This document shows positions 6,657 to 7,008 of a stretch of 8,788 nucleotides of DNA, one piece after another. The translations under genes were made by a program, and so were the position numbers. The stretch is taken from the UHGV virus genome UHGV-1374307; one strand, given 5' to 3'. Position 1 is the stretch's first letter, and the number at the start of each line of letters is the position of its first letter. This DNA comes from a virus. Under the pieces are notes generated by a model that saw nothing but the letters and a program-made list of their open reading frames with translations, was not told the DNA's origin and ran no database searches.

Positions 6657-6825
6657 GAATAAATCCTCAAAATTGCAAAAATGACGACTTACTAACACAT
6701 GAGTTCAGTAGTTCATTAGTGTTTAAACATTACACCAGTGAGCTAGTGAGTTCAAGAGGCTTGGATGATATGAGTTCATGAGCATGTATACTCACTTCAA
6801 ATATTGCATTGAACGAGCGTAAAAA
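6657..6825. promoter_or_regulatory. Divergent control region between gII and the plus-strand accessory block, with three direct TGAGTTCA repeats
   Basis: TGAGTTCA at 6700-6707, 6747-6754 and 6771-6778, plus AGTGAG half-repeats at 6737-6742 and 6745-6750. The region must contain the gII promoter and the promoter of CDS 6826-7008. No promoter hexamers assigned confidently. Confidence 0.45.
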
Positions 6826-7008
6826 ATGGCAAAGCGCACGACTTATAACGTGACGGAAGAAAGAAAAATGAAACTAGAACGACTGGCTATAAATGCCAGT
6901 GTAAAACTAGGAAAAACAATTACATGGACAGAGATTTTAGGTTATCTGATTGATAACTACTCTAAAGATGCAGCAGAAGATCTCATGTCTGCCAAACAAA
7001 AGGATTAA
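6826..7008 (+). CDS. Small putative DNA-binding protein (60 aa), possibly ribbon-helix-helix
   Basis: MAKRTTYNVTEERKMKLERLAINAS...: a short N-terminal strand-like segment followed by helix-like segments, reminiscent of Arc/CopG-type repressors (pattern only). Divergent from gII; followed by hairpins. Confidence 0.45.
   Translation: MAKRTTYNVTEERKMKLERLAINASVKLGKTITWTEILGYLIDNYSKDAAEDLMSAKQKD

Follow-up and report, generated by a model that had tools for sequence, protein, structure and literature searches.

The viral genome UHGV-1374307, by its sequence an enterobacterial filamentous phage of the YpfΦ/CUS-1 type, contains a short intergenic gap in which an 8-bp sequence is repeated between two genes that are read in opposite directions. 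The whole stretch of DNA that was analyzed, referred to here as the window, is about 8.8 kb in length. On one side of the gap lies the gene for a gII-type rolling-circle replication initiator (Rep) of 350 amino acids (aa), at 5604–6656 on the minus strand, which begins with GTG and matches the Pfam families Phage_CRI (E 4.7e-71) and G2P_X_C (E 2.3e-29). On the other side, at 6826–7008 on the plus strand, the list of open reading frames (ORFs) includes a 60-aa protein that matches phrog_2503 (E 3.6e-34) and is a putative RstR-like regulator of the ribbon-helix-helix (RHH) type. The start of gII is at the GTG at 6656, as the alignment with Phage_CRI begins at the first residue of the 350-aa protein and RefSeq gives an identical 1053-nt coding sequence in Escherichia coli UM146; the GTG at 6698 that appears in the mechanical ORF list is ruled out as a start by the same Pfam alignment and RefSeq gene. 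The gap therefore extends from 6657 to 6825 (169 bp). A Shine-Dalgarno sequence for gII, GAGGA, can be read on the minus strand at 6664–6668, 7 nt upstream of the GTG.

An original prediction, made from the letters of the window, had proposed that the 60-aa ORF is a gene divergent from gII, and comparison with other genomes bears this out: it is a real gene that encodes a conserved protein under selection. An identical protein occurs in at least 1000 contigs of Enterobacterales, where its label is always hypothetical. In four divergent relatives with an intact reading frame, non-synonymous divergence (pN) is 0.05–0.13 compared with synonymous divergence (pS) of 0.73–0.88, at which synonymous sites are saturated; in a fifth, L017, pN is 0.30 and the protein is diverged, in a manner resembling a frameshift, beyond about residue 40. 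The GAG(G) ribosome-binding site upstream of the regulator is retained in the relatives. Every intact inovirus that was checked has the homologue and the rep gene in divergent orientation, separated by 130–195 bp, and the same layout is found in pre-CTX, CTX-env, VAI1, and at least 10 further inoviruses.

Within the gap, three copies of TGAGTTCA lie at 6700–6707, 6747–6754, and 6771–6778, all on the plus strand and just where they had been predicted. The window as a whole has five copies compared with 0.29 expected, a number reached in 0 of 200 shuffles, and three copies of one 8-mer within the 169-bp gap arose in 9 of 2000 dinucleotide shuffles. The underlying box is an 8-bp pseudo-palindrome, TGA-RY-TCA (TGARYTCA), set head-to-tail in three clusters; the repeated, short, pseudosymmetric subsites of an RHH-type operator are thus present, in 8-bp phase, at three sites. 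Predicted operator site 1 (6692–6715) consists of the tandem boxes CTAACACA, TGAGTTCA, and GTAGTTCA, with the perfect box at 6700–6707, and on alignment is conserved in five divergent relatives. Predicted site 2 (6739–6754) consists of the tandem boxes TGAGCTAG and TGAGTTCA; the alignment has the invariant columns TGAGTTCAA, with the right box and the A that follows it invariant in all relatives. Predicted site 3 (6771–6786), again from the relatives' alignment, has a full box followed by a TGAG half-box (TGAGTTCA and TGAGCATG), of which TGARYTCATGAR is conserved in all relatives at 24–25 bp from the site 2 box. The description of the copies as direct repeats applies to this window but not to some relatives, which show TGAACTCA at the same positions. 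Two more exact copies of TGAGTTCA, at 231–238 on the minus strand and 8626–8633 on the plus strand, are within ORFs near the genome ends, which in the circular form lie on either side of the attP region.

The sequence AGTGAG, also proposed as a half-site, does occur at 6737 and 6745 on the plus strand and at 6791–6796 on the minus strand. However, its status as a separate element is unsupported: it is absent from the gaps of the relatives L013, L015, and L017 (the single copy in L013 being in the ribosome-binding region of the regulator), and as a separate half-site it is not conserved. Since the two plus-strand copies are the left edges of 8-bp boxes, AGTGAG does not appear to be an independent half-site.

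The occurrence of the boxes follows the regulator rather than the replication protein. In L011, L012, L013, L015, and L017, the regulators are 60–86% identical to that of the window and have the N-terminal strand (T/A)TYNVTE, whereas the Reps are only 27–39% identical. In these relatives TGAGTTCA, or the near-mirror TGAACTCA, is found at three aligned positions with spacings of 45–53 and 24–25 bp, and the remainder of the gap has diverged. In contrast, prophages of E. coli ERP001 (L018) and E. coli NC101 (L019) encode a Rep that is 86% identical and have no TGARYTCA box at all. The same slot in these prophages (3558–4177 in L018 and 2885–3502 in L019) is occupied by a 148–150-aa Cro/C1 regulator of the helix-turn-helix (HTH) type and an unrelated gap, and both share with the window a 140-aa gene located downstream. 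Similarity in blastn to these two prophages ends at 6655 and restarts at 7017 or 6998, and more than 100 E. coli genomes match the window in this region only at 6998–7100, with an HTH gene adjoining in 17 of 17 among the matches listed. From these breakpoints, the gap and regulator gene together form an exchangeable immunity cassette (6656–7016), and on sequence comparison the interval singled out in the original prediction coincides nearly base for base with this recombination cassette. A contig of 25 kb that was assigned to ‘Candidatus Nanosynbacter’ in binning (L022, JARKOR010000214.1) has a 100% identical regulator and the same boxes, and is almost certainly a mis-binned enterobacterial contig.

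Across 29 loci, the class of the N-terminal strand predicts which motif is repeated in the gap. The strand (T/A/M)TYNVTE goes with TGARYTCA in the window and its Enterobacterales relatives; YTSLRV with ATACATG in Vibrio and Entomomonas; KNLGVPTE with GCTCACA in a lemur-saliva virus and Haemophilus; DTSVRVN with TACATAC in D_HF5_61 and Haemophilus prophages; DTTVRIN with GCATGCA in VAI1 and pre-CTX; and TTMAIV with GCATAAC or CATGTAT in Dickeya, Pectobacterium, and If1. This shift of box type with the residues of the N-terminal strand provides indirect support for a dimer with a β-ribbon that reads the major groove.

Structure prediction is consistent with such a protein. An AlphaFold2 (AF2) model, built from an alignment of 37 sequences, has a predicted local distance difference test (pLDDT) score of 92.8, with an extended N-terminus (residues 1–10), a helix (11–28), a loop, and a second helix (34–59), and this single-chain model has the β-strand-helix-helix topology of the RHH fold. 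The top match in a profile search of PDB sequences was helix B of ParG, at a marginal E of 0.01. The RHH features that had been proposed hold at the level of topology, but without a Pfam or significant Foldseek match, and on modelling the 60-aa protein probably has an RHH-like fold. The family is small, with 172 clusters at 50% identity among 1.84 billion representatives in a profile search. It includes members of 122–166 aa (P0164, P0172, P0180, P0185, P0211, P0218, P0255, and P0258) that the 60-aa profile matches twice; these may be natural tandem-RHH ‘single-chain dimer’ regulators. A literature search that combined RstR with ribbon-helix-helix returned no paper.

The resemblance to the rstR–rstA arrangement of CTXφ-type phages, noted from the layout in the original prediction, proves to be one of true homology. 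The comparison concerns the short RstR alleles only, and not the classical RstR-ET or RstR-class, where no homology is expected. By tblastn, identity to the 60-aa protein is 41% for the proteins annotated as RstR in pre-CTX and as ‘environmental RstR’ in CTXφ IB1617 (GQ466611, KR063268) and 42% for the ‘RstR-like regulator’ of VAI1; RstR6 (P0120) is 44% identical over 55 aa (pairwise E 4e-15; profile E 7e-21). All of these RstR-type homologues (environmental/pre-CTX, VAI1, and RstR6) sit divergently beside rstA. P0120 has 63 aa (192 bp including the stop codon), and the published primers for rstR6 (PMC11509585, supplement), which encode MKKKYTSLRV...TDLKR, identify it as RstR6. In the reporter assays of that study, RstR6 brings the activity of its own ig-2 promoter down from 2.18e5 to 1.94e4. 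Values for heterotypic promoters with RstR6 remain between 1.75e5 and 5.2e6, although for two of them (calc and 5) the baseline with the vector is only about 6.5e4 (PMC11509585, Table 2). Allele-specific repression of the rep promoter is reported there for RstR6 and seven other alleles.

The arrangement is, as had also been suggested, not that of the Ff phages, given that a divergent regulator is present. The window does have the ‘X’ segment (G2P_X_C / phrog_17464) and a gV homologue, and by analogy control of the pV/pX type may add to that of the divergent regulator. A review of YpfΦ describes YPO2273 as an RstR homologue in the rstR position (PMC4266046), and the 60-aa ORF is most probably YPO2273, because the only other candidate, a 140-aa ORF downstream, lacks a phage homologue. 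This second ORF was considered as the ‘RstR homologue’ of the review and set aside, with no homologue in any phage record. An exact-match search with a 46-nt pattern from the gap gave no hit among the species representatives of GTDB.

The positions of the predicted promoters relate the boxes to the initiation of transcription. For gII, the best-scoring −10 on the minus strand is TAATGT (6727–6732), and a −10 is predicted at the homologous position in L011, L013, L015, and L017. The predicted −35, TTGAAC (6750–6755, minus strand), is inside the site 2 box, and the same hexamer is found 17–18 nt from the −10 in all five relatives. With these elements, transcription of gII would start near 6720 and site 1 would span about +5 to +28 within its leader, which fits the proposal that the first repeat copy is part of the gII leader. 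For the regulator, a promoter scan suggests a weak −35, ATGATA (6765–6770, plus strand), and a −10, TATACT (6787–6792, plus strand), for which the relatives read TATACT, TAGAAT, or TATAAT. This −10 directly follows site 3, which fills the spacer of the promoter, and the predicted start of the regulator transcript is near 6799.

Taken together, we consider that the 60-aa protein is a small RHH repressor, in the family of the short CTXφ/pre-CTXφ RstR alleles, that would act through the boxes in the gap, and we put the probability of this at roughly 80%. Binding, the direction of repression, the promoter positions, and the oligomeric state are features that we infer. In outline, the N-terminal β-ribbon of the dimer (residues ~4–10, TTYNVTE) would insert into the TGARYTCA boxes, with RHH dimers binding cooperatively to adjacent boxes. 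Occupancy of site 2 would occlude the −35 of gII, occupancy of site 1, just downstream of the gII start, would block the leader, and occupancy of site 3, in the spacer of the regulator's own promoter, could lead to autoregulation. The replication and assembly operon (gII, gV, and downstream genes) would then be shut off, keeping the dif-integrated or episomal phage quiescent and giving rise to sequence-specific superinfection immunity, as for RstR. For YpfΦ, homo-immunity of a partial kind has been reported.

Several observations weigh against this interpretation. The repeats of some distant relatives are not individually significant, those of VAI1 and pre-CTX being reached in 227–267 of 2000 shuffles. 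Membership of a curated RHH sequence family was not found by Pfam, PDB-sequence profile, or Foldseek: Pfam gave no family for the 60-aa protein at E ≤ 1, Foldseek against the PDB gave nothing significant (none at E ≤ 0.001), and the β-ribbon is not visible in the monomer model. The promoter positions are consensus predictions, and the regulator has a poor −35; an automatic promoter scan returned only a plus-strand promoter, with promoter-like sites no more frequent than in shuffled sequences. No LexA box (CTGT-N8-ACAG, ≤1 mismatch) occurs in 6657–6825, so induction would differ from that of CTXφ-ET. The 2014 review states that the role of YPO2273 ‘awaits experimental demonstration’ (PMC4266046). 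In Yersinia pestis, the host protein RovA has been reported as a repressor of YPO2274–2279 that binds the promoter region of YPO2274 (PMC4266046), so the phage protein would not be the sole input.

Other explanations for the repeats and for the protein have been weighed against the same comparisons. Iteron-controlled replicons typically have repeats beside the rep gene, and the origins of the Ff phages bear repeats to which the gII protein binds, so that the boxes could be iterons or origin repeats for the gII Rep with the small protein incidental. Co-variation of the repeats with Rep would then be expected and was looked for, but a double dissociation was found instead: the boxes are missing from L018 and L019 despite their closely similar Rep, they are kept where Rep is distant but the regulator related, and the cassette in which they lie is swapped independently of gII. 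As the boxes change along with the regulator instead of with Rep, we regard them as operators and the iteron explanation as scarcely credible; the word ‘iterons’, used for them in the original prediction, does not survive.

The RHH protein might alternatively serve as an accessory to the rolling-circle initiator, bending DNA near the origin in the manner of TraY or TraM, or as an activator of gII. We consider this unlikely, as boxes coincide with conserved positions, −35 and spacer, in the two predicted promoters, the family member RstR6 is an allele-specific repressor in the reporter assay, and Cro/C1-type HTH proteins fill the same slot in sister prophages, which fits a slot for repressors. 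It is very unlikely that the repeats are simply promoter elements or sites for host factors (RovA/SlyA, or a reused −35-like TTGAAC) that have no dependence on the 60-aa protein. The report of RovA on the YPO2274 promoter region (PMC4266046) and the −35-like hexamer contained in one box are in keeping with that idea, but the boxes are absent from the E. coli sister prophages, which have the same host and Rep and another regulator, the sequence of the box varies with the β-strand of the regulator across hosts, and neither site 1 nor site 3 is placed at a −35. Repression by the 60-aa protein through the boxes is the reading that we retain.

The idea of an RstR homologue is not new for this phage, having been proposed already on the basis of homology in a review that describes no operators, fold, or cassette exchange (PMC4266046). 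The module is of a known kind, rather than a new system, and the additions made here are incremental: the definition of operators, the assignment of a fold, the tracking of the regulator by the boxes, and the boundaries of the cassette. They turn a one-line remark on homology into a testable model with three operator sites at given coordinates, two predicted promoters, and a fold. On balance, we favor a broader view in which the short RstR alleles (rstR6, ‘environmental’, and VAI1), YPO2273, and the If1 ORF would constitute one RHH repressor family that has no Pfam model, has MetJ-like tandem 8-bp operators and a recognition code readable from covariation, and is cassette-swapped with Cro/C1 HTH regulators across inoviruses of Enterobacterales, Vibrionaceae, and Pasteurellaceae. 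If the structural model is correct, the short CTXφ RstR alleles gain a structural class. A prediction from the exchange of cassettes is hetero-immunity between prophages that carry RHH and HTH cassettes with a common Rep. These phages are of wider relevance, as there is a link between YpfΦ and fitness in pandemic Y. pestis, and between CUS-1 and virulence in extraintestinal pathogenic E. coli (ExPEC).

Beyond the cassette, the window has a complete inovirus gene set on the minus strand, as judged from the ORF list, Pfam, and PHROG. This includes a gV-like single-stranded-DNA-binding protein (5275–5592, minus strand; Putative_G5P match), Zot/pI (2099–3193, minus strand), and genes for coat, attachment, and pIV secretin proteins. 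Across 7.5 kb, the window has 98.8% identity to the CUS-1 prophage that adjoins hipBA in UM146, and other E. coli chromosomes are 99.8% identical to 5600–7600; the CUS-1/YpfΦ phage type is described in PMC4266046. In some E. coli genomes (hits H47 and H57), gII of this prophage is split by an insertion of IS1. In related prophages the last 34 bases of the window directly join its first 82 bases, and the window therefore represents one full circular phage unit. Its junction (8744–8788 followed by 1–56) has two inverted dif-like sites that flank a GC-rich hairpin: GATGCGCACAATGACGTTATGCTAAA at 8744–8769, and GGTGCGCATAATGTACGACTCGTTATGT, the reverse complement of 29–56. No match to E. coli dif with ≤3 mismatches was found in the window, and the two inverted sites emerged with looser matching. 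From its sequence, this junction looks like an attP of the CTXφ type for integration by XerCD.

Downstream of the regulator, a hairpin with a 10-bp stem followed by UCUUUAUU (7026–7054, plus strand; U-run present; minimum free energy −21 kcal/mol, z −3.5), recognized from its inverted repeat, is a probable intrinsic terminator of the regulator transcript. This hairpin region is outside the swapped cassette and is kept in prophages that carry the HTH cassette. The 140-aa ORF, which is hydrophobic (phrog_4174; 7097–7519, same strand), is present 3′ of both RHH and HTH cassettes, and the phage records searched for homologues of it included CTXφ. Further downstream, at 7525–7586, is a hairpin-forming element of ~45–62 nt (…AGTTCGGGTGTCACAGAACCCCGAACCGCTAGGCGGTG…) that is 86–96% identical in several phages with different Reps and hosts. 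It occurs in If1, 38 nt after the regulator homologue; in Dulem virus 53, 20 nt after the regulator; in Alteromonas phage phiAFP1; and, in V. cholerae JS9803, in a variant of CTXφ, where attRS is about 600 bp away. A scan of the whole window with Rfam gave no match, for this element or elsewhere. The element may serve as an origin or as a signal for packaging.

Comparison with known systems places the module among both phage immunity regions and RHH regulators. Coliphage If1 has, in its ‘major intergenic region’, an unannotated 63-aa homologue of the regulator with 58.5% identity. The β-strand of this homologue reads TTMAIV, and boxes of the CATGTAT/GCATAA type lie on the side of gII. If1 differs from the window in that an element of the IS200/IS605 insertion sequence (IS) family (a Y1_Tnp fragment and a TnpB-like ORF348) lies between the regulator and gII, so that the If1 regulator is separated from its promoter and operators. 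The If1 record (L002, NC_001954, 5143–7463) appears to be mis-annotated: ORF348 (‘homologous to eryA’) resembles IS605 OrfB/TnpB and was discarded as a candidate for the If1 gII, and ORF320 (‘R-pyocin-like’) is the gII protein, with a true start that is seemingly upstream of the annotated one.

Among RHH proteins, MetJ, Arc, Mnt, CopG, and omega have a matching fold topology and operators that consist of short, tandem, pseudo-palindromic subsites. The met boxes of MetJ are arranged in tandem, and the head-to-tail, 8-bp phasing of sites 1–3 resembles them. The window protein differs from these regulators in having no sequence-family match and a long second helix (34–59), and no co-repressor is implied.

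Classical RstR alleles are HTH proteins, not RHH proteins, and the PrstA promoter of CTXφ-ET is co-repressed by LexA. RstR-ET and RstR-class are ~112 aa in length (339 and 336 bp) compared with 60 aa here, and the LexA box, a feature of CTXφ-ET that is not known to define every allele, is absent from the gap of the window. The closest known counterpart is the RstR/ig-2/rstA module of CTXφ/pre-CTXφ (rstR6 and the ‘environmental’ allele of IB1617 and 17449). The TGARYTCA box of the window differs from the boxes of that module, its Rep is in another clade (25% identity to the CTXφ Rep over a short stretch), and, unlike the CTXφ module, it has a gene for a 140-aa membrane protein 3′ of the regulator. 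The two share a regulator divergent from rep across a gap of similar size (~135–170 bp in the CTXφ module) and type-specific repeated motifs within that gap. In both, the regulator and gap are hypervariable or exchangeable, as stated for CTXφ in PMC11509585, and both CTXφ and the phage type of the window have integration at dif by means of paired, inverted dif-like sites (PMC4266046), such as those at the junction of the window.
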